Below are positions 23,814 through 49,410 of a stretch of DNA of 64,000 nt, in pieces. Below the pieces are notes generated by a model. The model was given only the letters and a program-made list of their open reading frames with translations. It did not search any database and had not been told where the DNA came from. The stretch comes from Bdellovibrionales bacterium (lineage in GTDB: Bacteria > Bdellovibrionota > Bdellovibrionia > Bdellovibrionales > JAGQZY01), in NCBI GenBank assembly GCA_041736155.1, contig JBGSUL010000018.1, positions 2,066 to 66,065 on the forward strand, written 5' to 3'. How positions within the stretch are numbered: position 1 is the first letter of the stretch; each line of letters opens with the position of its first letter. The position numbers were made by a program, and so were the translations under genes.

Positions 23814-25154
23814 CTAACTTTGTAGTCCAGTTTCTAAGAATTGAATCCTAACAGTCGTACCTTTGCCCAAAAAAGAGTCAATACTGATATTTCCACCCCA
23901 AGAATTCACCTTCTTTTTTACATAATAAAGACCAAGGCCGTTTCCATGGATTTTTCCTTTTGAAAAGTGCTCATCAAAGACTTTTGGTAGATCGTGTAGA
24001 GCAATTCCTTTGCCGTTGTCTTCTACTAAAACTAAAGCTTCTGTATTTTTTTGAATGATGGAAACTTTTATTGATTTGCTATTTTTATCTAAAGCTTCAA
24101 TTCCGTTCTTAATGAGATTCGCAAAGACGCGCTTAAAATCTTTCCTATTCACTTTGAGTAATAACTCGCTAGGTGCGACAATTTCAAATGAGACATTTGT
24201 GTTGAACCTCATTACTCCTTTAACAAGTTCTTGGCATATGGGAACAATGTCGATCAATTCTATTTGCTGACTGATAAACTGAGATTCTCTTTTATGAGTT
24301 TCCATGAGGTCAGATAAAATATCTTGTACGCGCTGATTATTTGTAGACAGTACATCTAACAAATCGTCATTTAAAAAATTGTATTCTTTCAATTTAATTT
24401 TTTCTTTTAATATATTGATATTACTTTGATGATTGTAAATTGGCTCCCGAAGATCGTGGGCCAATGTTTTGATAAAACGAGATACTTCTTTTTCCATTCC
24501 AAGCTGAGTTTGAACTTCTGAAAGTTCGACTCTTGCTTCGACTCCGGCAGAAAGAAGCTCAATAATTTTATTTGTCTCGCGGTCTTCACTTCTGAGTGGA
24601 GTGGTTAGGGATGGATTTTCGTTCCATTTTTTAAGCGTGTCTATGGTGGTGTTCAGGGACTTTTTATAACCCATTAAAGGCTGGAGAGCTATTACGGCAA
24701 AAAGTATCAATACCAGAACAAACGCAAATGCAAACGTAGTGGTGCTAAATGTGCCTTGGATAAGAGCTGAGGTTGCTAGGCAGGTTTTAACGGGGCCGAC
24801 CAAGATTCCTCTAAAGGTGACGTCAGCTTCAAATGGTCGATCACAAGAAGCAAGAATCTGCGATGAATTATCAGGCCAGTTAAACACAAGTTTTTTACTA
24901 TAATAAACTTCGTATGCAGAAGTGTTAAAAGATTTAAGTACCATGAAGGCATCAGAAGTTGCCTTGGTGTTCTTATTTTCTAAAATGTTTTCCGCTAATT
25001 CATACTCTCTCTGCTGAATGTAGGATGAGATACTATTTTTCGACTCATCAATCTTTTTATAGAAAAGAAAAATAAAAAGTCCCGACACTAGACCTAGTGA
25101 GGTCAGGAGAATTAAGAAGGTAGATTTTTTAAATAACCACAGACTCTTAATCAT
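23814..25154 (-). CDS. sensor histidine kinase (two TM helices flanking a periplasmic domain)
   Basis: H-box TLAHDLREPIYN, G1 VEDNGKGI, G2 GNGLGLYYVKK. Confidence 0.8.
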   Translation of the reverse strand: MIKSLWLFKKSTFLILLTSLGLVSGLFIFLFYKKIDESKNSISSYIQQREYELAENILENKNTKATSDAFMVLKSFNTSAYEVYYSKKLVFNWPDNSSQILASCDRPFEADVTFRGILVGPVKTCLATSALIQGTFSTTTFAFAFVLVLILFAVIALQPLMGYKKSLNTTIDTLKKWNENPSLTTPLRSEDRETNKIIELLSAGVEARVELSEVQTQLGMEKEVSRFIKTLAHDLREPIYNHQSNINILKEKIKLKEYNFLNDDLLDVLSTNNQRVQDILSDLMETHKRESQFISQQIELIDIVPICQELVKGVMRFNTNVSFEIVAPSELLLKVNRKDFKRVFANLIKNGIEALDKNSKSIKVSIIQKNTEALVLVEDNGKGIALHDLPKVFDEHFSKGKIHGNGLGLYYVKKKVNSWGGNISIDSFLGKGTTVRIQFLETGLQS

Positions 25155-25163
25155 TAAAATTCC

Positions 25164-28034
25164 TTATTTACAAACTTTCGCGGTCGAAACCATTTTTGAG
25201 AATCCATATTTTGAATCGAGCGTCTGCAAGTAATTTATCATACTGCTGTCTTGATTTGCCAAAACGCAAACATTCCAGTCTTTTAGAAATTGAAGTTTTG
25301 CTTGTTGATGAGTTTCTTTATTAAAAGGAGATGTTTTACATTTTTTGCCAAAGTATAGTACATTTGGGTTTAAAAGATCTGTTATCAGATTGGAGTCTTC
25401 GTCTTCGTCTTTATCTTTTAATAAAAGTGTGCCCATCATTGAGTATCCACGACGAGAAAATTCTACGGAATAGGTGCCACTAACTGTGGCAACCATATTT
25501 ACTGGCTCACAGGAATCAGACGATTGAGAGATGAATGTGTCAGACACATCGTTTTCGATATGATTAGATGTAAATGATCTGAAAAAATCAGACTCTGCTT
25601 GCGAAAGGATTTTTCCTGAGCACGATTTGTTCAATAAAGATTCTAAAGCAACAAATGAACCAATAGTCGTCCAATCTTTAATTTCATTATCAGTGACATT
25701 TTCAAAGCGACACTGGACATCTGATGAAGGGATCGGAGATTGAAAAGAATCTAAAACTTTTGAAAATGATGGAAACTCATCAAGGGCATTAGCCCCAGCA
25801 ACAACACTCATGAGTTCATAAATTGAAATTGGATTTATGCCAGTTAATTTTGCATTTTCTAAAAGCAAAAGTTCTTTAATAATTTTTTGCCAAAACTCTT
25901 TATCTGTTGATAGGTACGCGTACACGGGACTAACTACAAGATTACTATAGCTGATGGGCATAAGAGTAATTCCAAGAGAATCTGTTGTTGCATACTTGCC
26001 TTTTAACGAGTTTTCGATATTTTCTTTTCCAGCCCAGAGTAAAATACTTAGTGGAAGCATTTGCTGGGTTGGGAATAATTTTTGATTTATTGTTGCCCCT
26101 TTTTCAACAACGGAAATTGCGAAGGATTCGTTTTGAAATATTCTAAATACTTGTTTTAAGATCGGCATTAAAGTTCCGACCGCATCTTCGGATGACTTTT
26201 TGGCTTCAAAAATATGGAGCACAAGTATCCATGGGAGACTCATTTTAATTTCCCCACCAACTGCATCAGAAATCGCCAATTTATCATTAAAATTTTGTCC
26301 TATAGTAGAAATCACATTGGACTTGAGTAAAAGCTTATTCAGCGTATTCCAAGTAGTATTATTTTTTATTGAATACATCAAAAGAGAGTGAATCAGCGTT
26401 ATTTTTTCTTCTTCAGGAAAAGAGTTAATAGGATGATCCGATAGAGCAACCAAGTAGTCCACCACCTCAACGTAAGAAGTGTCATTTTGCTCTACGATCC
26501 TTGAGACTGCATTGGTGAGTGCTGCTGCGCCGAAACTATTATCAAACGGAAGTCCAGACTGTTTCAAAGAAATGAGCTGAGATTGTGCAAAAGGACCTGT
26601 TTTGGATTCTACGACGGCAACCTCGATAGCGTCAGTTTGCTCCGACGGGTCAAAGGGAATATTTGATTCTGTGAGGAGGCTTAGAATGCCTACATTGTTA
26701 TTTTTAACAGCCGCAGCGAAAGCCCCTTTTGGAATTTTCCCAGAATAGTTTAAAGTGAAACTTACAAGATCTGTCTTTTGACTTAATGTTAAGTTCGATA
26801 CAATAATCTCTGAAAGAGTATTTGTTGAGGATCGATCCGTAGTATAGTCTAAAAATAAACTCACAATTTCCGTATAGGTCTTTTTATCAAGACCTTCCGC
26901 AAATCCCACTTTAAGAGTATTCAGTGAATGCTGATCGAGCGAATATCCTGATTTTTCAAGGCTACCTTTTCTCCAAGTGGTCAGAATGTCTTTGATAAGC
27001 ATTGATTTTTTAGCTGTACCAGTGGATGAAAATGTGACACTTAGCACATCTTCAGTGAATGAGTTTTTATGACTTGCCGGAAAATTAAGTTTTAAAAATG
27101 AAGAATGAATAGCAACAACGCCGCTACTGTCATTTTGTATAGAGGTCTTAATAGAGTTCTGTGCAAGATTGTTTAAAAATTCAAAATTAAGAATGACCCG
27201 CTCTGTTGAGGCAATTACTTCGATTTGCTTTGAAAGCCAATTAGGGTTCTGAACAGAGTCTTCAACTTTTAAGTCCTCTACTTTGATTCCATCTGTAAAA
27301 GCAAGGTCTACAACTACAATGGTGTTCTTCTGAACTCTCGCTGCATCAACGGCATCAATTAGATAAGAGAAAAATTCAGGATTTTCCATTTTATTAGACG
27401 CGATTAGCAGTCGTTCTTGATTTTTAAGAACATCGAGTGACTCGTAAGATCGGCCTTCGATAAAATATTTGAGTAAGTCCTCAGCTCTGTCAGAGGGGCC
27501 GGAAATAAAAATAAATGGGTACTCGATTAATGTTTGTGTAGCCATTGGTAAGCTAAAAGGAATATTATTTTTTTTGATAATCGAAAGCACTACGTCAAAC
27601 TTTGAATCTGTTAAATTTTTAGCAATTGCAGTGGTCATTACCGAAATACTTTTTTGAAACAGTTTTTGTATTTCAGTGTCGTCCTTATGGATTTTGCTGT
27701 ACGCAGTTTCTTTTGGACTATCTTTAATTGATACAAATGGCATAGCATTGGCTTTTAAAAGCATTTCCACTAGAACTGCGTCGCGCATCTGCACTGAACG
27801 AATCAAGACTGTGTTGCCCTGGGCATCATACTGTTCAAGGTCAGTACCAGTATTGATTAATGCTGCAACTGATTTGTAGTCTTTTTTGAGAACAGCATCA
27901 AAAAGTTCGTTACTTAATTCTGAATCAGACTTCTTTTCAGGAACTTCAACAATTCTAGGAGGGACCTCTTCTTTAAATGAGCAACTTGCTAACGCCAGCA
28001 CAAAGATAATTATAATTCCCTTGCAGTATTTCAT
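25164..28034 (-). CDS. large (956 aa) lipoprotein with N-terminal ankyrin repeats
   Basis: Lipobox LALASC. The ankyrin-like stretch LFDAVLKKDYKSVAALINTGTDLEQYDAQGNTVLIRSVQMRDAVLVEMLLKANA. The rest has no recognisable family. Confidence 0.65.
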   Translation of the reverse strand: MKYCKGIIIIFVLALASCSFKEEVPPRIVEVPEKKSDSELSNELFDAVLKKDYKSVAALINTGTDLEQYDAQGNTVLIRSVQMRDAVLVEMLLKANAMPFVSIKDSPKETAYSKIHKDDTEIQKLFQKSISVMTTAIAKNLTDSKFDVVLSIIKKNNIPFSLPMATQTLIEYPFIFISGPSDRAEDLLKYFIEGRSYESLDVLKNQERLLIASNKMENPEFFSYLIDAVDAARVQKNTIVVVDLAFTDGIKVEDLKVEDSVQNPNWLSKQIEVIASTERVILNFEFLNNLAQNSIKTSIQNDSSGVVAIHSSFLKLNFPASHKNSFTEDVLSVTFSSTGTAKKSMLIKDILTTWRKGSLEKSGYSLDQHSLNTLKVGFAEGLDKKTYTEIVSLFLDYTTDRSSTNTLSEIIVSNLTLSQKTDLVSFTLNYSGKIPKGAFAAAVKNNNVGILSLLTESNIPFDPSEQTDAIEVAVVESKTGPFAQSQLISLKQSGLPFDNSFGAAALTNAVSRIVEQNDTSYVEVVDYLVALSDHPINSFPEEEKITLIHSLLMYSIKNNTTWNTLNKLLLKSNVISTIGQNFNDKLAISDAVGGEIKMSLPWILVLHIFEAKKSSEDAVGTLMPILKQVFRIFQNESFAISVVEKGATINQKLFPTQQMLPLSILLWAGKENIENSLKGKYATTDSLGITLMPISYSNLVVSPVYAYLSTDKEFWQKIIKELLLLENAKLTGINPISIYELMSVVAGANALDEFPSFSKVLDSFQSPIPSSDVQCRFENVTDNEIKDWTTIGSFVALESLLNKSCSGKILSQAESDFFRSFTSNHIENDVSDTFISQSSDSCEPVNMVATVSGTYSVEFSRRGYSMMGTLLLKDKDEDEDSNLITDLLNPNVLYFGKKCKTSPFNKETHQQAKLQFLKDWNVCVLANQDSSMINYLQTLDSKYGFSKMVSTAKVCK

Positions 28035-29545
28035 GGCTTCTCCTGCTGAATATTTCCAAAGAACTTATATTTTTTGGAATATAATGTATTTTCATTTATT
28101 TTTAAAATTTCAGCTTGTTTACGATTTTTTGATGAGACCGACATAGCTTCTTCAATAGCATTTTTTTCAATCAAGTGAGTTACATCATCAAGGCCGAGAT
28201 GATTGTCTTGCTGAACGAGTCGCTCTGCAATTTTTCTAATCAAGACTTCTAGTGGTTCAAAATCTCTCATTTTAACTGATTTTTTACCATCTACTTGTAT
28301 AAGAATATTTTTCCACATGGAGTAGTCTCGTTTGCCATTTGGTTTAAGTGGACAAAAAATAAAAACTCTTTCAAGTTCGTTTCTTATACCTCGAATGTTA
28401 AATGGTATGTAATCACTTTGAAAATGTTCTTTGAGTGATTGCGGAAAATCAGTATAAGAAAAATCTTGTTTGTGTTCTCTCTGAATTTCATTGGTAATGA
28501 GCTGACAAATATAAGGTAAATCTTCTTTACGTTCTTGTAGGGACGGCATATTTAGGCTGACAATGCTGATTCTAGCGTAGAGGTCGGAACGAAAATATCC
28601 TTGCTTTACCATTTCTTCTAAATTTTTGTTTGTAGCGTATATGTTTCGAGCATTCATTTTGATGTCTGTGTTTCCACCTACGCGACGGAAACTTTTCTCT
28701 TCAATGACCTTAAGCATACTTCCTTGCAGTTCCAGGGAGGCATCTCCAATTTCATCTAAAAAAAGATCCCCGCCAGCAGCGGCTTCAAAAAGTCCTTGTT
28801 TTCTTTCGTTAGAACTTGTGAATGAACCCTTTTCTGAACCGAATAATTCGGATTCGATCAGTGTTTTAGGTATAGAATTTATATTGACGTTTATAAACGG
28901 TCTTTGCTGCTGTTTATTTGCTTCTTTTGTTAATTGGCTTAATCGTTTGGCGGCATGTGTTTTTCCGAGTCCTGATTCTCCAAGAATTAAAACAGGCGTA
29001 TTTACTGAGGCTAGGGTCTTTAACTTAAAGTCAAAATCCTGCATTGCTTTTGACTTCACTATGTATGTGCCTGAATCAGTTTCACCTGTTGTCTTTTGAG
29101 AAAAAAGTTCGAGTTCAGTTTTTGCAGACTTTAGAGCGTTGAGAATTTGTTGGTCGCAGTACAGTTGATTATCAGCAGACGGTTTTTTTGATACATATCC
29201 TAATGCACCATATTGCATGGCTTTGACAGCAGCATGAACATCCTCGCAGGCAGTAATTACTAATATTTTAGAGCGAGGACTAATCTCTAGGATATTTGGA
29301 ATTTCATCAATGCCATCAATTCTGTCGCCGTCCGGCGTTTCGCCCAGATCCTTATCGAGAAGAATCACATGAAATGTTTCTTCTCTGATTTTAAAGCGCA
29401 TTTCTTCAACTGTGGTGGCTGTCTTTATATTAAGAAGGCTCTTATCAAGACTTTTAAAGATGGAAGAGACTCTATAATGAAGAGTAAATAGAGTATCTTT
29501 GTGATCATCCACAATTAAAATGCTGACCTGATCTCGACTATTCAT
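28031..29545 (-). CDS. sigma-54-dependent response regulator (NtrC-family bEBP: receiver + AAA+ + Fis-type HTH)
   Basis: Receiver ILIVDDHKD...HVILLDKDLG. Walker A LILGESGLGKTH. ESELFGSEKGSFTSS (variant GAFTGA loop). GGDLFLDEIGD. C-terminal NRKQAEILKINENTLYSKKYKF. Confidence 0.85.
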   Translation of the reverse strand: MNSRDQVSILIVDDHKDTLFTLHYRVSSIFKSLDKSLLNIKTATTVEEMRFKIREETFHVILLDKDLGETPDGDRIDGIDEIPNILEISPRSKILVITACEDVHAAVKAMQYGALGYVSKKPSADNQLYCDQQILNALKSAKTELELFSQKTTGETDSGTYIVKSKAMQDFDFKLKTLASVNTPVLILGESGLGKTHAAKRLSQLTKEANKQQQRPFINVNINSIPKTLIESELFGSEKGSFTSSNERKQGLFEAAAGGDLFLDEIGDASLELQGSMLKVIEEKSFRRVGGNTDIKMNARNIYATNKNLEEMVKQGYFRSDLYARISIVSLNMPSLQERKEDLPYICQLITNEIQREHKQDFSYTDFPQSLKEHFQSDYIPFNIRGIRNELERVFIFCPLKPNGKRDYSMWKNILIQVDGKKSVKMRDFEPLEVLIRKIAERLVQQDNHLGLDDVTHLIEKNAIEEAMSVSSKNRKQAEILKINENTLYSKKYKFFGNIQQEKP

Positions 29546-29625: not shown

Positions 29626-29708
29626 AAAAGTCTTTAAATTTCGTGACTGTCTGTCTTGAATTTTAAAATTTAAAGACTTTCTAAGAGTCACGAAATTTAA
29701 AGACTTTT
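29626..29708. promoter_or_regulatory. 23-bp perfect inverted repeat (candidate activator UAS) plus extra half-site copies
   Basis: AAAAGTCTTTAAATTTCGTGACT (29626-29648) is the exact reverse complement of 29686-29708. A third copy, AATTTAAAGACTTT, lies at about 29668-29681. Related AAAGTCTTTTAA / GTTAAAGAC lies at 29791-29811. Confidence 0.5.
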
Positions 29709-29752: not shown

Positions 29753-29768
29753 TGGCACTCCTTTTGAT
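29753..29768 (+). promoter_or_regulatory. sigma-54-type (-24/-12) promoter candidate for the tra operon
   Basis: TGGCAC-tcctt-TTGAT has the consensus TGGCAC-N5-TTGCW spacing. The -12 element is GA instead of GC. It lies about 87 nt upstream of ATG 29855 and about 45-125 nt downstream of the inverted repeats. Confidence 0.5.
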
Positions 29769-29854
29769 ATATGTCGGTTTGACTGAATAGAAAGTCTTTT
29801 AAGTTAAAGACAAAAAATCAGATCGTTTTGAACTTGAAAGAAAAAGGAGAATTT

Positions 29855-30070
29855 ATGATCGAACATGTTTTAGAAAAAATGGAGCCAACCAACATTAACG
29901 AGGTGAAGACAATTGTACGCACCTGGTATGGGAATCTGCCCATAGAAATCCTCGTTTTAAATAAGCGACTTCAACAAGCCATCATGGAATTTGAAAAAAC
30001 GTGCGAACGTGGCAGTTTTGATTTCGTGAGCTTTACCGAAGAGCCTCTTGCTCTTAGCGCCTCGGAGTAA
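29855..30070 (+). CDS. small hypothetical protein (first ORF of the tra operon)
   Basis: AAAAGGAG SD before ATG 29855 (MIEHVLEKMEPTN...). No family recognised. Confidence 0.4.
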   Translation: MIEHVLEKMEPTNINEVKTIVRTWYGNLPIEILVLNKRLQQAIMEFEKTCERGSFDFVSFTEEPLALSASE

Positions 30071-30073
30071 GCC

Positions 30074-30238
30074 ATGGATCAGCTTCGATTGATTGTGCTT
30101 AAAATGTTTAAAATATCAGATGAAGATCGTACAGAACCCGTTTCTGAGTTTGAACTTATCCTTCGAGACAGAATTAAAGAAGTTCTTGGGTTCTATTCAA
30201 ATAAACAAAATATGAAGGTTGTTAAAAATGGAAAGTAA
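30074..30238 (+). CDS. small hypothetical protein (54 aa)
   Basis: Manual translation: MDQLRLIVLKMFKISDEDRTEPVSEFELILRDRIKEVLGFYSNKQNMKVVKNGK*. It starts 4 nt after the previous stop and overlaps the next start. Below the ORF-track size cut-off. Confidence 0.3.
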   Translation: MDQLRLIVLKMFKISDEDRTEPVSEFELILRDRIKEVLGFYSNKQNMKVVKNGK

Positions 30239-33203
30239 CAAAGACATCAATATTGCAATCACAGGAATATTATTCGTCCTTGTTTTATCTTTCTTATGGA
30301 TTTTAACATTAAAAGCAGGAATTTTTGAGTCTGTTAAAATTATCCAAGCTTACTTTTTAGTAAAAGGTGGAGCATTTTCATTTGTGATTTTAAAAGTGAT
30401 CGTAGTTTATTGCCTTGCCATATTTTCCATCTTGAGTTTTCTAGGAATTGGCGAGTTTGGTAAAAAAATATCTTCCTATAAAAAAACAAAAGATAAAAAA
30501 GAAATCTTTCCGACTGTTATTTCATTCCTTACGGGCCTCATTTCAGGTTGGCTCTTAACAAAATATATAAGTCTTGTTCAGTTGATAGTGCCACTCCCGA
30601 ACATCATACCTTATGAACAGATCAAAATCCTCATCGCAACAATCAATGGTGCTGAAGCGTTATCCGTGGGGTTTTTATTTACTCTCCTTACAAAGAGTCT
30701 GATTAAATTTAATTTCTTAAAAATAGACCGCATTCCAATGATTCCAACACAAAAAAATAAATTAGTTATCGGCACTAAAATCGAAGGTGATGAAGAGAAT
30801 TGGATTGTTCTTGGTGAAAAATCGCTCTCAACAGGTCTACTAACTACTGCTTCTACTGGGAGTGGTAAATCAAGTGCATGTTTGCTTCCTTGGACAAAAC
30901 AAATATTAGAAAATTTTGAACCTAAGCCTTCGATTGTAGTGATTGATGCTAAAGACTCGTTTGCGAGAGACGTTGTAAAGCTCGCTAAAGGGTTAAAGCG
31001 CGATAGCGATCTAGTGCATTTCACGATGGATGGTTCATTTAGAACAAACGTCATCTATCAAAAAGACATACTTAAAAACAGCGGTTATTCAAAAGTGGCG
31101 TCGATGATCCAAGCTGCCACTGACAACTATATGGGGAAACAGACTGGCGAGAGTAAATTCTGGGGTGTGAAGGGCTATACATTCTTAAAGAATATGGTCA
31201 TTTACTGTGCAGGTAAATACGGTGATTATTTCACCCTAAGAGACTTTTATGAGGAAATTATTAAAAGCACAAATTGCGACTATGCTCTTGAGATTGACTC
31301 TTTTTTGCTGAGCGAAAAATTAGATTGGGAAGAAAAGAGAAACCTAGAAATCGCTCAAAGTTACTTTGAATATGAATTCGCAAAACTTGATTCAAAACTT
31401 AAAGACAGCATTGTTCAGTCAGCATCGACATTCCTTGCTCTCTTGAGAGATGCTAAGGTTGAAAAAATATTTTGTCCTAAAAAAGAAGATGTCACATTTT
31501 GGGGATTTGATGAGATCGTAGATAATGGTAAAATCTTCGTTTTTGGAATAGATATACCTGGTCTGTCAGCGCCAATGGCGATTTTGATGAAACTCCTTTA
31601 TCAAAGATCAGTGCTAAATCGAATTAAAGAACCTCAAAGACTTTTAAATAAGCGTCTCAGTGTTGGCATCTATGATGAGTATCAATCTATAGTAACTACA
31701 GGCGGCGGGCAAATCGAAGGCGACGATGATTATGCAGCAAAACGTCGAGAGGCATTGGGTGTAACGATTGCAGCTACACAGTCTTTAAGCTCTCTTGCGC
31801 AGGCCATTGGTAATGATATGGGCCTTGATACGCTTATTCAGAACTTTAGAAATCAGGTCATAGGTCACTCAAAGGACAAGAGAACGGTCGAGTATTGCAA
31901 ATACTTTGCAGGAGAGATCGAGCGCGTGACAGAGAGTAAAAGTTTTTCTGAATCTGGCTCAAATCCATTAAAAAATCTCTTTGGAGGAGGACTTACAACA
32001 TCAAAGCCAACCGTCAGCCAGTCCCTCAATCAGAATGTGCAGAACATTCCACGCATAAATGGTGAAACTCTAAGTACGTTAAGTATTAACGAGGCCGTTG
32101 GGTTTTTCTTTGACGGCGCAAATTCATTTTTCGTCGAAAAAGTGGGTTTAAAACCAAATTATCTAAATAGCATGAGAACAACTCATGCTGATGTTTTGGC
32201 CTTTAGCAGAAAAGCAGCAGCTGTATGTTTGGCTTTATTCATTACTCCAAAAGTTTTTGGAAGCCCTACGGTATGTAGTGCTGTAAAAATGCCGACCTAT
32301 GAAATGTGTATGGAATACAACACGTCTCCGTGCATGTGTGGCGGCACACCGCCTAGACCATGTGTGAGACACTCCTATTATTTCCCACAATCCTTTATTG
32401 AGGTTACAACAGCGGCTAATAAAAGTTTTTTTTCAGAAATCCCAGGAGCGGCAGTTCAAATGTCGTCAGGTTTTCTAGATTCCGTCAGTCATGGAGCCGA
32501 TGACATGGGTGGGTACTTTTATCATGCAAGAATTATCCAGATCCCTTTAAGTAGCTTTGGTTACGAAGGGTTTGCTTGCGGTGGTAATAAGCAAGAAAAG
32601 CTCTGTTTCGATGCTGTATCTGAGCATGTTGATAGTTGGAAGACCGGAATCGCCGATCAATTACAGCCTCAGTACCTTGCTTGGAAAATGGCGATCCCCC
32701 TTTGTTACAAAAAAGCTTTAAAAAATGCCGTTATAGGCGATACCCCCAACCCCCCTTTACAAAATTCCTTGAGCTGTGGGTTCCCACTGAAATCTATCAA
32801 GGTGTTTCCCCCATCCATGAGCGAACAATGCACTGGATGGGGGACTCTTTTTCCTAGAACGGGTTTTGTTGAAAGCTCAAGCTCTGTAGGTGCTGCCCTA
32901 CTGGCTGCAAAACGTCTTAGAAGCTTGGCAAGTGATGTTTATAGATCAACTCCAATGTCGCCGGATGAAAAATGGAGTCTTGTTTACCCAAACTCCTCAA
33001 GCTGCTTTCGAGAAGGTAAATCTCTAGGAGAAATCGAAACAATGCGCGGAGCAAATGAGCTTGGGAGACTTTCAAAAACAAATCATCAGACCTTTTTGTT
33101 TGCTGTGTGGAAAAGAGTGAGCTGTTGCAAGGACTTTGATTCTATACCAGAAACAGCGGCTTCCAAGGTGGCGCTAAAAGCAATTTGCCAAGGGATGGAA
33201 TAA
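30228..33203 (+). CDS. type IV coupling protein (VirD4/TraD/TraG family) fused in frame to a TraU-like domain
   Basis: N-terminal TM helices. Walker A TASTGSGKSSACLLP and Walker B VGIYDEYQS. From aa ~652 comes a signal/TM-like segment (MRTTHADVLAFSRKAAAVCLALFITPKVFG), then TraU-like motifs: YYFPQSFIEVTT, GGYFYHARIIQIPL, CTGWGTLFPRTGFVESSSS, FLFAVWKRVSCC. Confidence 0.75.
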   Translation: MESNKDINIAITGILFVLVLSFLWILTLKAGIFESVKIIQAYFLVKGGAFSFVILKVIVVYCLAIFSILSFLGIGEFGKKISSYKKTKDKKEIFPTVISFLTGLISGWLLTKYISLVQLIVPLPNIIPYEQIKILIATINGAEALSVGFLFTLLTKSLIKFNFLKIDRIPMIPTQKNKLVIGTKIEGDEENWIVLGEKSLSTGLLTTASTGSGKSSACLLPWTKQILENFEPKPSIVVIDAKDSFARDVVKLAKGLKRDSDLVHFTMDGSFRTNVIYQKDILKNSGYSKVASMIQAATDNYMGKQTGESKFWGVKGYTFLKNMVIYCAGKYGDYFTLRDFYEEIIKSTNCDYALEIDSFLLSEKLDWEEKRNLEIAQSYFEYEFAKLDSKLKDSIVQSASTFLALLRDAKVEKIFCPKKEDVTFWGFDEIVDNGKIFVFGIDIPGLSAPMAILMKLLYQRSVLNRIKEPQRLLNKRLSVGIYDEYQSIVTTGGGQIEGDDDYAAKRREALGVTIAATQSLSSLAQAIGNDMGLDTLIQNFRNQVIGHSKDKRTVEYCKYFAGEIERVTESKSFSESGSNPLKNLFGGGLTTSKPTVSQSLNQNVQNIPRINGETLSTLSINEAVGFFFDGANSFFVEKVGLKPNYLNSMRTTHADVLAFSRKAAAVCLALFITPKVFGSPTVCSAVKMPTYEMCMEYNTSPCMCGGTPPRPCVRHSYYFPQSFIEVTTAANKSFFSEIPGAAVQMSSGFLDSVSHGADDMGGYFYHARIIQIPLSSFGYEGFACGGNKQEKLCFDAVSEHVDSWKTGIADQLQPQYLAWKMAIPLCYKKALKNAVIGDTPNPPLQNSLSCGFPLKSIKVFPPSMSEQCTGWGTLFPRTGFVESSSSVGAALLAAKRLRSLASDVYRSTPMSPDEKWSLVYPNSSSCFREGKSLGEIETMRGANELGRLSKTNHQTFLFAVWKRVSCCKDFDSIPETAASKVALKAICQGME

Positions 33204-34747
33204 TGTTTGGTCAATTTTTGGTAGATCAAAAAATTATCAATCAGGCGCAGCTTGATGAGGCATTAGAGGATCAAAAAGTTTCACATGAAAAGCTCGGTCG
33301 AATTTTAATGGCTCAAACAGTCCTAGAAAAAGGACAGCTAGATCAGACGTTATTAACTTATTTAAAAATTGAAAATGCACAGTCTCTTTTAGAAACATAT
33401 AAAGATTCAAAAAATCTTACAAAGGTATTCCTCGGAGAAAAAGTAATTGGTTTTCTGTCGAATGGTACAAAACATCTCTATATCGAAGTATTTTGCGACG
33501 ATGTATTGGTAGAATTAGAAAAAAGGCACTCATTCAAAAAAATCGAATTAATAACAAGTGACCAAAGTAAGTATCTTTCAGGACTTTTTGAAACAAAAGA
33601 TAATAGTCAAAGAGTCGAAAAACCAAAAATATACGGTCCTTTCGATAAGTTTTTATCAAGTGTGTTTGACGAAGCCAAGAAACTTAAGGCCAGCGATATT
33701 CACTTTGACGTGGAAGAGCATGGTCTCAGCGTCCGGTTGAGAGTTCACGGCGATTTGATTGAGTTTAAAAAAGTTGAAAAATCACATGTTCAGTCTTTGA
33801 TGACAAAAGTAAGGAGCGAGGTGGGGCTCCCGCTATCCGTCGTGGGTCGCCCTGCGAGCGGTTCCCGAAATCTTGAGGAATATGGGGTAAAGGTTCGTTC
33901 GGAGTATGCTCCTGAAACTCTTGGAGAAACCATCGTTTGTCGAATTATTGATAACGAAAAAATTAAAAGTGCAAAGATCGAAAATATTGGCGCGGATATT
34001 CTATTTACAGAAAGCTTAATAAAATCTCTCAAAAGAAAAAACGGCCTTATTCTTCTTTGTGGTCAAACAGGGAGCGGTAAATCACTGACTCTTTTTTCAG
34101 CACTTATGTCTCTTGATCGCTTGAGAAAGAAGATAATCACGATTGAGGACCCAGTTGAGTATGAGGGAAATGGTCTTACGCAAATTGATGTGAATAAGCA
34201 CAAGCTTACTTTTAGCGAAGCCTTGAGGTCTAGTCTCAGGCTTGATCCAGATGTGATCATGGTTGGTGAAATACGAGATGAGGAGACTGCAAGTCTTGCG
34301 ATGAGAGCATCGTCCACGGGACATCTAGTGCTAAGCACACTTCATACTAACAGCGCCATAGGGGCTATTAGTCGTTTAAGCGGGATGGGCGTAAAAGAAG
34401 ACGTTTTAGTGGAAAACGTGATTCAAATAAGCGCATTAACTCTTAAAAAAGAGCTGTGTCAAAGGTGCAAAATTCCTATCACCGACTGGAAAGATAAGGA
34501 CACTGAGGCTGAGTTTTTGTCCCTACAAGCCAACAATACAATTTTTTATGAGCCAAACCCAAGTGGCTGCGAGTTTTGTACTCAGGGCCATATTGGTCGA
34601 AAACTTTTAACAGAGACCATTGACTCTGATGTGGTTTATTCAAAGGTTTTTTCTAAAAATAGTGAGGGATATAGGACTTTACTGGATTGCGGAAAAGAGT
34701 ACGCAAGTCTTGGGATTATTTCCCCCTATGAAGTGGTGGGATTATGA
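33203..34747 (+). CDS. GspE/PilB-family secretion ATPase with a T2SSE_N/MshEN-like N-terminal domain
   Basis: Walker A LLCGQTGSGKS. TIEDPVEYE. RLDPDVIMVGEIRDEETA. His box LVLSTLHTN. C-terminal CQRC...CEFC tetracysteine. N-terminus FGQFLVDQKIINQAQLDEALEDQ / KLGRILMAQTVLEKGQLDQTL. TAATG overlap with the upstream gene. Confidence 0.85.
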   Translation: MFGQFLVDQKIINQAQLDEALEDQKVSHEKLGRILMAQTVLEKGQLDQTLLTYLKIENAQSLLETYKDSKNLTKVFLGEKVIGFLSNGTKHLYIEVFCDDVLVELEKRHSFKKIELITSDQSKYLSGLFETKDNSQRVEKPKIYGPFDKFLSSVFDEAKKLKASDIHFDVEEHGLSVRLRVHGDLIEFKKVEKSHVQSLMTKVRSEVGLPLSVVGRPASGSRNLEEYGVKVRSEYAPETLGETIVCRIIDNEKIKSAKIENIGADILFTESLIKSLKRKNGLILLCGQTGSGKSLTLFSALMSLDRLRKKIITIEDPVEYEGNGLTQIDVNKHKLTFSEALRSSLRLDPDVIMVGEIRDEETASLAMRASSTGHLVLSTLHTNSAIGAISRLSGMGVKEDVLVENVIQISALTLKKELCQRCKIPITDWKDKDTEAEFLSLQANNTIFYEPNPSGCEFCTQGHIGRKLLTETIDSDVVYSKVFSKNSEGYRTLLDCGKEYASLGIISPYEVVGL

Positions 34748-35418
34748 TGATCATTATAGTCATCTCACTTCTTCATGCTGAGTATTTTGACCAAAACATT
34801 GAGTATTTTAAGGACCAGACAAAAGCTATTGAGACAAAGAAAAATTTAGAAAAAAAAGAAAAGAAGTTTGATTGGAATACCCATCTTGATAAAAAAAACG
34901 ACGAGTTTTTCAAAGAAGGAGACTATATTCCACCAGCTCCGTTTCTTGAAGCAATGAGACGTCCCACGAAGAAAAATATTCTTCTTTTTGAAAAATGGCA
35001 TGAGAAAAAGAACTTTTTGCTAAAAAGATTCAATGAAAAACGTGCCGAAGTTCTGGGTCGCCCTGTAGTTTCTGAAGAAAAATCAACCGATAAAGAAATT
35101 TCTCTAGATTTGAAAAAATATACTTTTATTTTCTACTTTGATTCCATGTGTTCGTCATGCCGTGGAATGTTTGAAGTTGTAAATGACATGGTAACTCAAG
35201 GGATTTTTATCGAGGCTGTCAGGGTCGATAGTCTTGAAACTGTTGTGCAAGGATTATCCATCCCTTGGACGCGAGCATCTAAGAAGGAAATTGAACAAAC
35301 AAAGATTACAGCAGTTCCTATGCTCCTAGCTTTTGAGAAAGAAACAAAACGAGCATTTAAGATAGTAGGCAAAAAATCAGTTTATGAAATAAATGAAATT
35401 TTAAAAAATCAAAAATAA
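34744..35418 (+). CDS. thioredoxin-fold conjugal transfer protein (TrbB/TraF-like)
   Basis: YFDSMCSSCRGMFEVV contains a CxxC motif in a thioredoxin-like context. The position in the tra operon fits. ATGA overlap upstream. Confidence 0.6.
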   Translation: MMIIIVISLLHAEYFDQNIEYFKDQTKAIETKKNLEKKEKKFDWNTHLDKKNDEFFKEGDYIPPAPFLEAMRRPTKKNILLFEKWHEKKNFLLKRFNEKRAEVLGRPVVSEEKSTDKEISLDLKKYTFIFYFDSMCSSCRGMFEVVNDMVTQGIFIEAVRVDSLETVVQGLSIPWTRASKKEIEQTKITAVPMLLAFEKETKRAFKIVGKKSVYEINEILKNQK

Positions 35419-35427
35419 AGGAGAAGT

Positions 35428-35817
35428 ATGAAAATTTTAAGAAAGATTTTAAAAATATTTAATTGGGATCTAATGACGCTACTTTTGCTGTTAGCATTTG
35501 TGCTTTTCCTCTCATCAAAGGCATCGGCGATAAATATCAGCGGAGAGGATATTTCTGGAGATATGGAGACAGTGGGTAGTCTTTTTAAAACAGCGGATAC
35601 GATGACCTTTGGTTGGGCGTCGCCCCTAATTGCGGGGATATTCATTATTATCGGCTGCGTAGGTCTTATTCGATCAAACTTTATGGTGTTTTTTCTCTGT
35701 TTTACAGCAGCCATTCTCATTTTGCTTGTTCCAAAGATTGTTTCCGAGCTTCGTAGAAAGGGCGGAGATTCGGTCATTAACGCCAAGGCCGTATTTCTAG
35801 AGAAACACTATGTTTGA
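35428..35817 (+). CDS. candidate T4SS pilin (TraA/VirB2-like)
   Basis: Long leader ending SSKASA, then two hydrophobic helices (WASPLIAGIFIIIGCVGLI; FMVFFLCFTAAILILLV). Sits directly upstream of the traL-like gene, as in F. Confidence 0.5.
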   Translation: MKILRKILKIFNWDLMTLLLLLAFVLFLSSKASAINISGEDISGDMETVGSLFKTADTMTFGWASPLIAGIFIIIGCVGLIRSNFMVFFLCFTAAILILLVPKIVSELRRKGGDSVINAKAVFLEKHYV

Positions 35818-36121
35818 TTACAAGAAGATCAAAAGAGAACACGCAAAGGTTACTAATAGAGTCTTATCTGAACCAATCATGGTATTTGATTTTTTGGAGC
35901 TCAAAGAGGCATTACTTGGTGTATTTTTGTTCTTTTATTTTGGCATTGTGGATACAAAGCCATTTTTGCTTCTTACACTACTTTTTTTACTAGTGTTTAT
36001 ATGGCCTCCGTTTAGAGAAAAAATTCCAAGGGGATATCTCCTCCACAAGATATCCAGATATTCGCCAGTAAAAATACCAAACTTTATTGGTGTCAACGGT
36101 TCTTCAAAATTAAGAGTATAG
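35810..36121 (+). CDS. traL: TraL-like small membrane protein
   Basis: 103 aa with a central hydrophobic hairpin (ALLGVFLFFYFGIV...LLLTLLFLLVFIW). F-like gene order pilin-traL-traE-traK-traB. Confidence 0.55.
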   Translation: MFDYKKIKREHAKVTNRVLSEPIMVFDFLELKEALLGVFLFFYFGIVDTKPFLLLTLLFLLVFIWPPFREKIPRGYLLHKISRYSPVKIPNFIGVNGSSKLRV

Positions 36122-37062: not shown

Positions 37063-37842
37063 ATGAATTTTTCGACTTTGATGAATAGAGCTGTTGTTCA
37101 ATTCTCGCCTCTTCGCGATGATCTTGTAGATTTTGTTAAAAAAGGAGCAAAACGCCGAGAAACGAAAATTAAACTCAAAGACTTAACAGAGGCAAGGCTT
37201 AAAAAGATTCCAAACTACATTGCCGTTGAAGTGGCAAAACAGAAGATCAGTCTCACAAAGGATGCCTTAATTGTAGGACTTTTGAGTTTGGTTTTAATCC
37301 TTATGTATTCGGTAACGAATCTTGCAAGCAAGATGGATGAACGAATCGTGGCTCTTATTCCAAGTCGAATTGAGAAAGCAACAGAGGTGCAGCCGAATCA
37401 GATTAGTCCGGCTGCACTTTACAGCAAACTTTCATCTTTTATCAGTTTGCTCGGCAATATCGACCATGGAAACGTTGATTTTAATTACGAAGTGCTGCGC
37501 GGTCTGATGTCTGACGAGTTAAAGGTTAAATTTTGGGCAGACTCCACCCAGCTCAGGAAAATTGTGAAAGAAAAAAGCATGAGTCAGACCATAAGCTACG
37601 ACATGAAGGATATGAGTGTTGGTAGCCGTGGGAAAACGATAAGCGCGCTGGTGAAAGTGAAGATCAAGCCCATGTATGGTGATGAGCTTGGGAAAATCCG
37701 TGAAGAATACATGCTTCTTGAGGGAACTGTTGTTGTGAAAAAAGAAGATAATTTTTGGGAGATTGAACTATTTAATCTTGAGCAAGGTCCGTTGAGCGAT
37801 ATTGCAAAAGTTAAACGTCGAATTGAAGGCGGCTTAGAATGA
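37063..37842 (+). CDS. traE: TraE-like bitopic T4SS protein
   Basis: Single TM LIVGLLSLVLILMYSV, followed by PAALYSKLSSFISLLGNIDHGNVD... as in F TraE. Synteny supports the call. Confidence 0.55.
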   Translation: MNFSTLMNRAVVQFSPLRDDLVDFVKKGAKRRETKIKLKDLTEARLKKIPNYIAVEVAKQKISLTKDALIVGLLSLVLILMYSVTNLASKMDERIVALIPSRIEKATEVQPNQISPAALYSKLSSFISLLGNIDHGNVDFNYEVLRGLMSDELKVKFWADSTQLRKIVKEKSMSQTISYDMKDMSVGSRGKTISALVKVKIKPMYGDELGKIREEYMLLEGTVVVKKEDNFWEIELFNLEQGPLSDIAKVKRRIEGGLE

Positions 37843-38644: not shown

Positions 38645-39862
38645 ATGAATGAACTGAAAAAAAGATGTTCTCAAGCGACAGCTTTATTCAAAGAGTGGCT
38701 TGATGGAGATAAAAATAGAAAATATGTCTGTTTTGGGGGCATATTAATTGTACTCATTTTTCTAATGAGTGGTGGTGAAAAAGACGCAAGGTATGTTTTT
38801 AAAAACGACGATTTTAAGAAAATTTCTAAGAGCTCAACGGTAGACAATCCGTACCGCCATATTGCAGATGATAAGATGGCTCTTTTTGAAAAAGCTGAGA
38901 TGAGCATTAGAAAAGAAAATAAAGTCATTTTGACTGAAATGGAATCCATGCGGGAGAGTTTTCAAGAACTTTCGGCAAAACTGAATGATTTAGGTAAAAA
39001 GCCAAAAGATATCTCTGAGACTCAAAAGGAAGGAACGCCACCACTAGAAAACGTAAACTTTGGCGCAAGTCCGATTCAGTCCGTACCATCACTTGTTGAT
39101 TCAACACAGGAATCATCGACAAAGAAAGTATCAGTCCACGAAAAGAAACCAAAGTCTGGTCCTTACTCTGTTGTCTTCCCGGTTGAGGTGAAAGCAAACG
39201 ATGAAGAAAGCGGCGTTGTGATTGGAAAAGGTTCTAGGGCCTATGGGAAAGTCATCGGAGGTGCCGAAGTTCCAATGGGAGAGACTTATCCTGTTTTAAT
39301 ACAGCTCGATCATGCCTTTATAATGGCAAATAACAAAAAGGTAGATCTCAAAGGCTGTGTGCTGATCGCAAAGAGCGAGACTGTCTTTGCAACAGGTAAA
39401 ATGAAAATGGAACCTGATTCAATCACTTGTTATGGACCGAGCGGAAGTCATTTTACTCAGAATAAAATCAAAGGATGGTTTAATGACCCTAAAGACGACA
39501 ACTTTGGCATGAGCGCGGAACTTAAAACAAATGCTGGTAATAAATCCCTTGGGGTTTTCGGGCAGTCATTTGTCGAAGGGCTTGGTGCTGCAATTGAAAG
39601 AGGTTCTCGTTCTGTTGGTGGCCAAGGAGTTGATGTAAGAGCTGACGTTGTTCTTCAAAATAGTGGCCAACAGGCTGGAGTAAAAGCTGGACAACTTTTT
39701 ATGGAATATCTCAATGGGCTTAAACCTACTCTTAAAGTCACCTCTGGACGAGATACCTGGCTGATTCTTGGCTCAGATCTTGTAATCCCATATGAGTTTT
39801 TTAGAGAAAGGAAGGATCATGCGGATAAGAAAAATTCTAGCGTCGTTGATTTTATTAAGTAG
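38645..39862 (+). CDS. traB: TraB-like (VirB10-class) T4SS protein
   Basis: N-terminal TM YVCFGGILIVLIFLM, then a coiled coil and a Pro-rich linker. C-terminal LKGCVLIAKSE...ITCYGPSG...IKGWFNDPKDDNFGMSAEL resembles the TraB/VirB10 barrel region. Confidence 0.6.
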   Translation: MNELKKRCSQATALFKEWLDGDKNRKYVCFGGILIVLIFLMSGGEKDARYVFKNDDFKKISKSSTVDNPYRHIADDKMALFEKAEMSIRKENKVILTEMESMRESFQELSAKLNDLGKKPKDISETQKEGTPPLENVNFGASPIQSVPSLVDSTQESSTKKVSVHEKKPKSGPYSVVFPVEVKANDEESGVVIGKGSRAYGKVIGGAEVPMGETYPVLIQLDHAFIMANNKKVDLKGCVLIAKSETVFATGKMKMEPDSITCYGPSGSHFTQNKIKGWFNDPKDDNFGMSAELKTNAGNKSLGVFGQSFVEGLGAAIERGSRSVGGQGVDVRADVVLQNSGQQAGVKAGQLFMEYLNGLKPTLKVTSGRDTWLILGSDLVIPYEFFRERKDHADKKNSSVVDFIK

Positions 39863-40079: not shown

Positions 40080-42560
40080 ATGATTTTAAATAATTCATAC
40101 AATATAGTTTCGCATCTTCCGTATTTAGAATTTATGGATGATGAAAAAATATTTATTTTAAAAGATAAAAGTCTTGGCGTAATTTATTCGATAAGCTCGC
40201 TCGATCATGCCCCGATGACTTATGAGGACATTAAGGAATTTTCTGAAAGCTTTATTAATCTTATTGATTTACCACAAAACTGCGTTCTGCAGTTCTATAC
40301 CTTGAGAAGCCCCAAAAGCCAAAAGTCACTTCTAGAAGAAAATAAATTTTCACTAATAGCAGAGAGTAAAACAGCGCAGTTTTTTAATGAAAAGCGTATT
40401 GGGTTCTATCTGGATCGCTTAGAAAAACAGGAAGTTTTCGAGTCGAGACTCTATTTTTCAATTCGTTTTAGGTCAGAAAAAAACTATTCTTCATTTAGCA
40501 GTCATTTTTTGGAGAAAGATAATTTTTTATCTCATATTGAAGGTTTTGAGAAAAACAAAGAAGAGTTTGAAAAAGTTCTTTCAAGGCTTGAAGCTGTATC
40601 GCGCCTTAAATTGAGCAGGATTAATTCTTATGAGTTAAGGGAAATTTTTCAAAAGACATTTTTAAACCAAAAAAACAAAACACTTGCTCCGATTATTAAA
40701 AACATCCCATTGAGTGAGCAATTGTTGTTTGAGAGCGTAGCTTGTGATGAAAAAGGGCTCAATAAAGATCTTTATACAAGAACTGTAAGCTTTCTTGCTC
40801 CGGCAGAGCATTGCGAGGGCGATGGAATCAATTTTTTAAATATTAATTTTCCATCTACTGTTTCTTTACGAATCACCAAGCCTTTAAAATCCAGCGTTTC
40901 TCGAATTTTAGGAATAAAGGAATGGTGTACAAAGAATAGTTTTTCCTACAAGTCTAAAAAGCAGTTTGAGGAAATTCAAGAAACTAAGAAGAAAATCGCT
41001 CAAGAGGATACATGTCTCCACTTGTCCTGGAGTGTGACCGTGTTTGGTCGTACAGAGGAAGAGGCCACCAAGCGTGCAAATGCAGTAGTAGCTCTTGGCG
41101 TAGAAAAGTTTAAGTGTAACGGAATCATCGAGGATGATTGCGGTTTAGATATTTTTTTAAACAGCTTGCCGCTTTACTTTGATGAAAAATGTGAATGGGG
41201 TTCTCAGAGATTTATTCCTCTCCATAGAAGTGAAGTTTTATGTTTTTTGCCAGTGTTTGGTTCCTATCTTGGAGATCAGGACTCTTTACAAGTTTATGAG
41301 ACACGCGAAAGTAGTGTTTTTGGCTTCTCTCCGCTTTCTTCAAAAACATCTCAGCACAGTCTTTTTATCGGAGATACGGGGTCTGGAAAAAGTTTTTTAA
41401 TGAACAGTTGTCTTAATGCCGTGAAGCTACTTCCCGAAGAACCAATCGTATTTGTGTTTGACTATAATACGAGTCAAACGATGAATGCCAAACTTTATGG
41501 CGGTGAGATCAGTCGGTGTCAGATGGGTGAAACGCCAAGTGTGAATGTGTTTCGCGGCGTTTATGACGATAAGAAAATCAGTGTTCTTACAAACTGGATG
41601 TGCGAAGCGATTCGACTGACCTCACCTTCCTTTTTAATCGAAACTGAACATAAAGAAGCACTTTCGCAATCTGTAAGGCTTGCGTATAGCAAAAAACTAG
41701 AGTCGGAAAACACCACTTATGTTGAAGGCACATTGGTTCACACAAATAGCAGTCATCGAGTTTCGATCAATATGGACGATATTGCAGGAGAGCTATCTTA
41801 TCTACCAACTCAGAAGGGCTTTGAAAAGTACGATGGGATTGTAGAGGTTTTACTAAATAAACTACGTAGTTTTTATGGCAACGGTCTTTATGCGGATTAT
41901 TTTAGAAAAACTGACAACACTGATTCTTTTGATAAGAGATTCTACGTTGTCGATTTTGAGGGAATCAAAGACGACCCTGTTCTTTTAAGCCTCACAGTTG
42001 CAAGTGCATTTGAACAGGTCCGTCAGGTCAAACTTCGTCCAGAAAACGAAAGGAGACAGGTTATAGCGGTTTTAGACGAAATTGCGGAGCTTGGCAGATC
42101 TTGCCCTTTAATATCTGATTATTTTGTAAGCAAAGCTGAAACAAGCCGAAAGGATGCCTTTTGGATTTGGGGTGCCACAAACCGTCCAACAAACTTTTTT
42201 GAAGTACCAGTGTGTAAGGCTCTCCTGAGTGTTGTAACACACCTTTATGTGCTTCCAATGAGCCCAAAAAATGTTGAGCAGCTTGCAAGCGAAACTAAGA
42301 TCTTAAATATCGCTGATGTGGAAAACATTTTGTCCTTAAAAATCGAAAAAGGACAATTTGGAGAGTTTTACTACATTAGCACTGATGGACGAAAAAAGTA
42401 TGTCGGAAGAAATCGTCCCAATCGTTTTGAATACTGGCAAACACCGAGTAATGCCGAAGCCAGTCGTCTAGCATCAAAAATTTTAAAGAAAAACAATAAC
42501 GACGCTCTTAAAGCCATCTTTGAACTCGCTCATCTCGAAGAAGAGCCTAAAAAGGAGTAA
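40080..42560 (+). CDS. traC: TraC/VirB4-family T4SS ATPase
   Basis: 826 aa. Walker A FIGDTGSGKSFLMNS and Walker B IAVLDEIAEL. Confidence 0.85.
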   Translation: MILNNSYNIVSHLPYLEFMDDEKIFILKDKSLGVIYSISSLDHAPMTYEDIKEFSESFINLIDLPQNCVLQFYTLRSPKSQKSLLEENKFSLIAESKTAQFFNEKRIGFYLDRLEKQEVFESRLYFSIRFRSEKNYSSFSSHFLEKDNFLSHIEGFEKNKEEFEKVLSRLEAVSRLKLSRINSYELREIFQKTFLNQKNKTLAPIIKNIPLSEQLLFESVACDEKGLNKDLYTRTVSFLAPAEHCEGDGINFLNINFPSTVSLRITKPLKSSVSRILGIKEWCTKNSFSYKSKKQFEEIQETKKKIAQEDTCLHLSWSVTVFGRTEEEATKRANAVVALGVEKFKCNGIIEDDCGLDIFLNSLPLYFDEKCEWGSQRFIPLHRSEVLCFLPVFGSYLGDQDSLQVYETRESSVFGFSPLSSKTSQHSLFIGDTGSGKSFLMNSCLNAVKLLPEEPIVFVFDYNTSQTMNAKLYGGEISRCQMGETPSVNVFRGVYDDKKISVLTNWMCEAIRLTSPSFLIETEHKEALSQSVRLAYSKKLESENTTYVEGTLVHTNSSHRVSINMDDIAGELSYLPTQKGFEKYDGIVEVLLNKLRSFYGNGLYADYFRKTDNTDSFDKRFYVVDFEGIKDDPVLLSLTVASAFEQVRQVKLRPENERRQVIAVLDEIAELGRSCPLISDYFVSKAETSRKDAFWIWGATNRPTNFFEVPVCKALLSVVTHLYVLPMSPKNVEQLASETKILNIADVENILSLKIEKGQFGEFYYISTDGRKKYVGRNRPNRFEYWQTPSNAEASRLASKILKKNNNDALKAIFELAHLEEEPKKE

Positions 42561-49395: not shown

Positions 49396-49410
49396 TATTC
49401 GAGGAGTATC

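Follow-up and report, generated by a model that had tools for sequence, protein, structure and literature searches.

Does one gene in a conjugative element of a Bdellovibrionales bacterium encode both a cytoplasmic type IV coupling protein (T4CP) and a periplasmic TraU-like protein, and if it does, do the two parts stay joined? The gene in question lies on the + strand at 30228..33203 of the window studied here, that is, the whole stretch of 64,000 nucleotides that was analyzed (contig JBGSUL010000018.1). A sequence-only reading of this window had proposed the fusion. It described the junction between the two parts as either a signal peptide or a transmembrane (TM) helix, and it raised a lost stop codon, a frameshift, or a traU gene translated from an internal ATG at 32172 as other ways to explain the locus. 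Our analysis confirmed that this open reading frame (ORF) does join a TM-anchored T4CP in frame to a TraU-family domain.

One reading frame for a coupling protein and a TraU-family domain

The ORF list gives one uninterrupted + strand frame, which runs from a TTG at 30219 or an ATG at 30228 to 33203 and has zero internal stops, as had been claimed. The two starts would produce proteins of 994 and 991 aa, respectively. The ATG at 30228 is preferred based on the N-termini in an alignment of 18 homologs, which gives a gene of 991 codons plus the stop that encodes T4CP, internal signal peptide and TraU-like domain. The chain starts with four N-terminal TM helices and continues with a TrwB-like ATPase; a short hydrophobic segment then leads into the TraU domain, which is rich in Cys. 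All the peptides quoted in the sequence-only reading are present in the translation: GSGKS, DEYQ, MRTTHADVLAFSRKAAAVCLALFITPKVFG (residues 649-678), YYFPQSFIEVTT, GGYFYHARIIQIPL, CTGWGTLFPRTGFVESSSS, WSLVYPNSSSC and FLFAVWKRVSCC. Homologs of the fusion are named "hypothetical protein" in the databases. When the 64-kb window was searched with a profile of the whole protein, neither another T4CP nor another TraU turned up. The analysis showed the N-terminal two thirds of the protein to be the element's sole T4CP and the C-terminal third to be its sole TraU-family protein.

The protein begins with a membrane domain (residues 1-170; 30228..30737, + strand) that has about four TM helices, as judged from hydropathy, charge and an AlphaFold2 (AF2) model. 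In the model, the helices span residues 4-26, 32-72, 90-113 and 129-160, with a pLDDT of 73-78. The charge distribution places the K-rich loop of this domain (residues 76-95) in the cytoplasm, along with the basic tail further on in the chain (residues 649-662). The cytoplasmic TrwB-like ATPase domain follows (residues 175-645; 30750..32162, +). In its Walker A motif, GSGKS (residues 211-215; 30858..30872, +), G211, G213, K214 and S215 are invariant across the 18 homologs, as are D483, E484 and Y485 of the Walker B motif, DEYQ (residues 483-486; 31674..31685, +).

Family profiles match this ATPase weakly. On the window protein, Pfam TrwB_AAD_bind scores 19.3 bits, slightly under its cut-off of 20.5, Pfam TraG-D_C scores 16.8 bits against a cut-off of 22, and NCBIfam SXT_TraD scores 23 against 366. 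Two relatives, P0021 and P0052, have precomputed unmarked matches to the same T4CP families. The T4CP assignment was kept despite the sub-threshold Pfam scores because the Walker motifs are invariant, TrwB ranked first in Foldseek, and tblastn found T4CPs. The top Foldseek matches of the AF2 model were about 20 TrwB chains (1e9s/1e9r/1gl7; E ~1e-6, TMt 0.56). Also among the top matches was the Legionella type IV coupling complex (T4CC) chain 6sz9_A, with HerA and VirB4 ranked behind. The full-length model is of moderate quality (pLDDT 61, pTM 0.46), and conclusions drawn from it were confined to the fold of the T4CP part and the pattern of helices. With tblastn, residues 175-648 matched annotated plasmid T4CPs at 21-25% identity. 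A relaxase and a TraC/VirB4 ATPase are encoded in the same conjugative module as the fusion. The Foldseek result, the invariant Walker motifs and the hydropathy thus bear out the proposed TM-anchored ATPase of the VirD4/TraD type.

The predicted mature TraU-like domain comprises residues 679-991 (313 aa; 32262..33200, +). Pfam TraU (PF06834) scores 42 bits on the domain and 35.7 bits on the whole protein, compared with a gathering score of 26.5, and the best-matching stretch runs over positions 196-305 of the 306 in the profile. When relatives were scanned singly, 15 of 15 matched Pfam TraU, with a best E of 2.7e-14. The domain contains 14 Cys, 12 of which are invariant in the 18 homologs, and the motifs GWG..PRTG, DEKW and CF.EG are conserved in the same set. 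The TraU part shows the signs of strong purifying selection. TIGR03756, the IceU family of ICEclc-type (MPF-G) elements, scores far under its cut-off on the window protein. A tblastn search with the TraU domain found no plasmid traU at E <= 1e-3 among 72,556 plasmids, a profile search against all PDB chains gave no sequence match, and a Foldseek search of the PDB with a model of the domain (pTM 0.70, pLDDT 63) gave nothing below E 0.9. Judged by these comparisons, membership in the TraU family is one that holds at the profile level only. The TraU homology that had been suggested stands as a profile match above the gathering score; the likeness to the motif order of F TraU stays a suggestion of the sequence-only reading. 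The TraU-like domain is predicted to be exported to the periplasm. The proposed topology of cytoplasmic ATPase, membrane crossing and periplasmic TraU is self-consistent, and the predicted charge distribution agrees with it.

Conservation and origin of the fusion

The same architecture was sought in databases. A word-indexed search found 18 full-length homologs of 982-997 aa with 46-81% identity and 100% coverage (43-81% identity when their alignment is counted as well), and an exhaustive profile search with roughly 1,700 hits added about 15 more 50%-identity clusters with whole-profile coverage (948-1050 aa). Overall, there are about 30 full-length fused homologs, down to roughly 25-30% identity. 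They come from NCBI metagenome-assembled genomes (MAGs), JGI, ENA, Logan and Tara, and the hosts of the relatives are Bdellovibrionaceae, Pseudobdellovibrionaceae and Bdellovibrio MAGs. The frame has no internal stop in 11 loci from independent assemblies, and at least 23 contigs of several origins carry exactly the same sequence of one homolog, P0006. The gene order of fusion, PilB/GspE-type ATPase (T2SSE), thioredoxin and TraC is kept at 48% identity.

Both parts also have stand-alone relatives. Stand-alone T4CPs cover profile positions 1-663 (P0038, P0046, P0051-53, P0056-57), and stand-alone TraU-like proteins are 326-341 aa long (P0043, P0044, P0172-P0182). The locus of P0044 (L013), whose translation did not match the query, was left out of the comparison. 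At one locus, L014, the two genes are split. A 689-aa T4CP ends there with ...KSQKSQKGQ-TAA, which is followed in one frame by AAA and then ATG-AAG-AAA (10068-10076), and the traU start encodes MKKLFGFIGVALIFSPSSRA|FPNICDVV. Since TAA-AAA-ATG lies in the same frame, one stop-codon substitution would interconvert the split and fused forms. The L014 contig was assembled from long reads at low coverage, its downstream genes are fragmented, and its in-frame TAA could in principle be an error. The signal peptide that begins with ATG-AAG-AAA after this TAA looks genuine.

Other arrangements are found further away. In two more distant loci (L015, L016), the T4CP gene is directly followed by T2SSE, with traU not between them, and in two others (L017, L018), traU is followed by T2SSE without a T4CP immediately upstream. 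The P0021/P0023 lineage encodes its N-terminal membrane domain in an ORF of its own (L004, 190 aa), which is 28% identical to residues 46-183 of the window protein. The ATPase, signal peptide and TraU remain fused in this lineage (L004 9408-12463, 820 aa), and the hydrophobic region of the signal peptide is longer, at 16-17 residues.

In a rough neighbor-joining tree of the ATPase domain, the fused forms make up one deep clade, the L014-type split is nested inside it, and the systems with a T4CP followed by T2SSE are its sister group. From this placement, the fusion is old, stably inherited and occasionally reversed. Because the split is nested in the fused clade, both states seem functionally interchangeable, as identical mature products would predict. 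The comparative data indicate that the fusion is real, ancient and under selection and is not an assembly artefact.

The junction between the two parts

In the window, the junction reads LKPNYLNS-M649-RTTHADVLAFSRK / AAAVCLALFITP / KVFG / SPTVCSA. It has the anatomy of a signal peptide, with a basic n-region, an h-region whose length lies within the 7-15 residues of such signals, and a c-region, but it is internal and begins at about residue 649 of 991. The n-region is the basic tail of the T4CP (residues 646-662, ending SMRTTHADVLAFSRK; 32163..32213, +), which has a net charge of +2. H653 and V656 in this tail are invariant in the 18 homologs, and the tail motif LKP..FL.....H..V/IL.. also ends stand-alone T4CPs, including P0038, P0046 and P0052. 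The h-region is the 12 residues AAAVCLALFITP (residues 663-674; 32214..32249, +). Across the window's clade, the uncharged core between the flanking charges is 11-14 residues long. The AF2 pLDDT is below 50 for residues 664-679, unlike that of the N-terminal TM helices (73-78). The c-region is KVFG (residues 675-678; 32250..32261, +). Cleavage by signal peptidase I (SPase I) is predicted between G678 and S679 (VFG|S, nt 32261|32262).

The alignment columns around this site follow the pattern of a signal peptidase substrate. Over the 18 homologs, column -1 is A9/G6/S3 and column -3 is A7/V3/S3/G3/T2. Column -2 holds F/Q/H/Y/N/L/V, column -4 holds K/R/N/Q, and column +1 holds F/S/A/Y and never Pro. 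This small-x-small site directly precedes the conserved mature TraU N-terminus, P-[ST]-[VI]-C-S. Distant fusions retain the site pattern (ANA|T, AYA|K, AQA|E, SKA|T, VKA|E, SFA|I), and the signal peptides of stand-alone TraU proteins end at the homologous position (AWA|G, AFA|F, AQA|L, TWA|F, SRA|F), with predicted cleavage sites 0-4 residues ahead of [FLY]P[SN][VI]C.

A regular expression found a -3/-1 site in every fused sequence. As a control, the rule-only search was applied to random 8-residue windows of the fusion proteins, where it succeeded in about 60%, and the regular-expression result was down-weighted after this control. Because of this background, only the column and positional evidence was counted for the cleavage site. 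Automated parsing of the h-region mis-split several distant sequences, and P0004 and P0007 were not parsed. The column composition and the position of the site favor reading the junction as a cleavable Sec/SPase I signal peptide inside the chain over a permanent TM helix. Of the two possibilities offered in the sequence-only reading, the signal peptide is thus matched by the anatomy of the junction, and a permanent TM anchor with a lasting tether is the less likely one.

A probable two-product polyprotein and its alternatives

With a probability of roughly 0.55, we favor the reading that the fusion acts as a two-product polyprotein from which signal peptidase releases TraU. The fusion would have been created by loss of the stop codon between a T4CP gene and traU. 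During synthesis, the N-terminal TM helices would direct the growing chain to SecYEG, with the ATPase domain folding in the cytoplasm. The T4CP tail would then serve as the n-region, the retained TraU signal peptide would insert N-in/C-out, and SecA/SecYEG would export the 313-residue TraU domain. The 12-14 Cys of TraU would be oxidized, probably helped by the adjacent CSSC thioredoxin; TrbB has been proposed as a helper for Cys-rich Tra proteins (PMC10939261). Cleavage by SPase I after G678 would give a free periplasmic TraU of about 34 kDa and a T4CP of about 76 kDa with a fifth, short membrane stub. F TraU and IceU of ICEclc are both periplasmic proteins processed by SPase I (PMC7555446, PMC10018362). 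The benefit of the fusion would be 1:1, co-localized production of TraU where the coupling protein sits.

Several points weigh against this polyprotein reading. Cleavage is predicted from a sequence pattern only, and the rule-based -3/-1 search has the high background in random windows given above. The internal signal is preceded by 650 residues, and eukaryotic signal peptidase cleaves less efficiently after long N-terminal extensions (PMC8277137). Also, the fusion has been retained for a long time, and the ATPase-TraU link was kept in the lineage without the TM domain, which could mean that the covalent link itself is useful.

These last points lead to the strongest alternative, a permanent tether, which we consider possible but distinctly less probable. 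Here the junction would stay uncleaved as a fifth TM segment, and each T4CP protomer would carry TraU across the inner membrane. The topology is self-consistent for such a protein, and the fusion persisted through deep divergence. The P0021/P0023 lineage, which split off its TM domain and kept the ATPase-TraU link, has an h-region of 16-17 residues, and the effect of long N-terminal extensions on cleavage, known from the eukaryotic system, would favor an uncut chain as well (PMC8277137). Furthermore, the TraU phenotype is mainly one of DNA transfer, which is the step of the T4CP (PMC7555446, PMC10939261). However, the 11-14 uncharged residues in the window's clade are short for a stable TM span, and AF2 does not pack the junction segment confidently. 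Columns -3, -1 and +1 vary only within the classes that SPase I permits and coincide with the sites of stand-alone TraU proteins, whereas an anchor needs no such site. That a split form is found inside the fused clade also indicates that the covalent link is dispensable. If the tether reading were true, each protomer of a hexameric ATPase would be joined across the inner membrane to a TraU subunit in a single chain. This would link the substrate receptor with the channel or pilus machinery of the periplasm and give TraU a direct role at the interface of T4CP and channel.

Another possibility is internal initiation, in which translation of TraU and a signal peptide of its own begins at the ATG at 32172 or a nearby start and the fusion is a by-product. 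Met is present at the position of M649 (32172..32174, +) in 14 of the 18 homologs, and a TTG at L657 in the window could start a plausible signal peptide. However, a comparison of codons among the loci shows that M649 is not a conserved start. Its codon is TTA in L001, the closest relative (81% identity), ATT in L002, TTG in L003 and a Lys codon in L004. In L001 and L004, no potential start codon (ATG, GTG or TTG) precedes the hydrophobic core. No Shine-Dalgarno (SD) sequence was found upstream of the M649 codon in any locus compared, as the sequence-only reading had correctly noted for the window, whereas most non-overlapping genes of the operon have AGGAG at -8 to -13. The Met lies within the tail motif, and since stand-alone T4CPs share this motif, M649 is not a relic of a traU start. 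There is also no upstream termination event that would allow translational coupling. We consider internal initiation improbable and rejected it on the codon and SD evidence. Least likely of all is that an error or recent mutation removed a stop codon and left a non-functional TraU part: a single point mutation would convert the split state to the fused one, but this reading was rejected because dozens of divergent sequences from independent assemblies have the same uninterrupted architecture, which refutes the suspected lost stop or frameshift, and in addition the TraU part is constrained (the 12 invariant Cys, GWG..PRTG, DEKW) and the element holds no other TraU or T4CP.

Comparison with known systems

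Like TrwB of R388, TraD of F, VirD4, and IceD4 of ICEclc, the fusion has a membrane anchor and a cytoplasmic P-loop ATPase. It differs from these proteins in two ways. It has about four predicted TM helices, whereas T4CPs usually have two, as IceD4 does (PMC10018362), and in place of a C-terminal relaxosome-binding extension it carries an export signal followed by a periplasmic domain of 313 aa. Like F TraU and IceU, this domain is Cys-rich, predicted to be periplasmic and preceded by a signal of the SPase I type, in a size range of about 310-330 aa. In contrast to F TraU and IceU, the signal peptide is internal, with 650 residues of T4CP ahead of it.

The genes for traU and the T4CP are separate and distant in F and ICEclc, unlike in the fusion. 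IceU of ICEclc is a TraU-like protein with an SPase I signal that is needed for transfer, and the T4CP IceD4 is encoded separately (PMC10018362). The neighborhood of ATPase, TraU and thioredoxin genes in our window resembles that of ICEclc orf55476 (PilT/VirB11-like), iceU and orf57827 (thioredoxin-like) (PMC10018362).

Fusions of subunits from neighboring genes are known from some type IV secretion systems (T4SSs), in which VirB3 is joined to VirB4, and these have been taken as a functional link (PMC4027160). While the VirB3 and VirB4 partners are inner-membrane or cytoplasmic proteins that share a side of the membrane, here a cytoplasmic ATPase is joined to a periplasmic protein via an export signal. 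A bacterial polyprotein that is split at an internal signal peptide is the FbcH cytochrome b/c1 precursor of Bradyrhizobium japonicum. Internal signals processed by signal peptidase, which split polyproteins, have been described in viral and yeast proteins (PMC5010249, PMC8277137). In comparison with these, the upstream partner here is a large folded cytoplasmic ATPase, and the cleavage is a prediction. The literature search found no description of a T4CP-TraU fusion, of an internal signal peptide in a T4SS, or of integrative conjugative elements (ICEs) in Bdellovibrio. The parts (T4CP, TraU and Sec signal peptide) are known, and no prior description was found for the T4CP-TraU fusion or the element family.

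The conjugative element around the fusion

The fusion sits in an ICE of the Bdellovibrionota. A tyrosine integrase gene (51398-52633, +) marks the right end of the element and is preceded by an excisionase-like HTH_17 gene (51108-51395, +). Between about 24 and 52 kb the GC skew is positive; on either side it is negative, with flips at ~24 kb and ~52 kb. No tRNA gene was found in the window (1-64000), and no convincing direct repeats were found flanking 24-52.6 kb.

The fusion ORF opens the conjugation operon, after two small ORFs. One of these lies upstream at 29828-30070, and the other encodes 54 aa (30074-30238) and overlaps the fusion start by 11 nt. A 54-aa ORF likewise overlaps the fusion start in L005 (2847-3011), and small ORFs of 46-80 aa are present ahead of the fusion in all loci. 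Downstream, the ATG of the PilB/GspE-type ATPase gene (33203..34747, +; 520 aa; Pfam T2SSE E 2.8e-80) overlaps the fusion stop (TAATG), and this gene follows the fusion in all homologous loci. The ATPase has CQRC...CEFC motifs near its C-terminus and is an unusual gene for an F-like tra operon. It is followed by a gene for a TraF/TrbB-like periplasmic thioredoxin with a CSSC motif (34744..35418, +), which has weak matches to Pfam TraF and Thioredoxin_2. With its intact CSSC (CxxC), this protein looks like an active disulfide isomerase of the TrbB type and not like F TraF, which is without CxxC (PMC10939261). The TrbB-type reading fits the neighboring TraU domain with its 14 Cys.

The mating-pair-formation genes that come next on the + strand encode TraL (35810-36121), TraE (37063-37842), a TrbI/TraB-like protein (38645-39862) and TraC/VirB4 (40080-42560). 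Scans of the window proteins recognized no TraH, TraN, TraW, TrbC or TraG. A MobC/NikA-like accessory protein (46327-46668, +) and a MobA/VirD2-type relaxase (46655-48403, +) are encoded further downstream. Between the relaxase and integrase genes lies a gene for an AbiEii-family nucleotidyltransferase toxin (50018-50854; Pfam 2.1e-37). It is overlapped by a 223-aa ORF (49360-50031) that could encode an AbiEi-like antitoxin, and the pair is likely stabilization or defense cargo of the element.

A divergent regulatory module on the - strand precedes the operon. It consists of a histidine kinase (23814-25154), a 956-aa Ank-like lipoprotein with a weak ankyrin match (25164-28034) and a sigma54-dependent response regulator (28031-29545). 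L001 and L014 have the same trio beside their fusion operons, and L004, L005 and L006 have a response regulator. Two-component regulation through sigma54 may control conjugation in elements of this family.

Between the regulator and the tra genes, the intergenic DNA holds an inverted repeat of 22 bp without mismatches (aaaagtctttaaatttcgtgac, 29627-29648; gtcacgaaatttaaagactttt, 29687-29708), with a third half-site at 29665-29683. A -24/-12-like sequence, TGGCACtccttTTGAt, is found at 29753-29768, and the half-sites of the repeat lie 50-125 nt upstream of it. Together, the repeats and the -24/-12 motif look like an enhancer plus a sigma54 promoter driving the conjugation operon. The identical -24/-12 sequence is present in L001 and a variant in L005; a pattern search did not find it in loci other than these two and the window.

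What the fusion means for TraU and for conjugation in Bdellovibrionota

TraU has no known structure (PMC7555446). It is among the last components of F- and G-type T4SSs without a known function, and mutants make some pili and transfer DNA poorly (PMC7555446, PMC10939261, PMC10018362). Whether cut or uncut, a deeply conserved natural fusion of T4CP and TraU provides "Rosetta-stone" evidence that the two act jointly at the substrate-entry step. For F or ICEclc, this leads to the hypothesis that TraU contacts the T4CP or the inner-membrane complex. If the fusion is cleaved, it would be a rare bacterial case in which a membrane motor and its periplasmic partner are made from one chain via signal peptidase. 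As a natural substrate, it would then also be useful in work on how Sec and LepB treat a signal peptide that comes after a folded cytoplasmic domain of 480 residues. For the predatory Bdellovibrionota, the locus reveals an undescribed family of conjugative elements in which F/G-like Tra proteins occur together with a PilB/GspE-type ATPase and what appears to be a two-component switch acting through sigma54.

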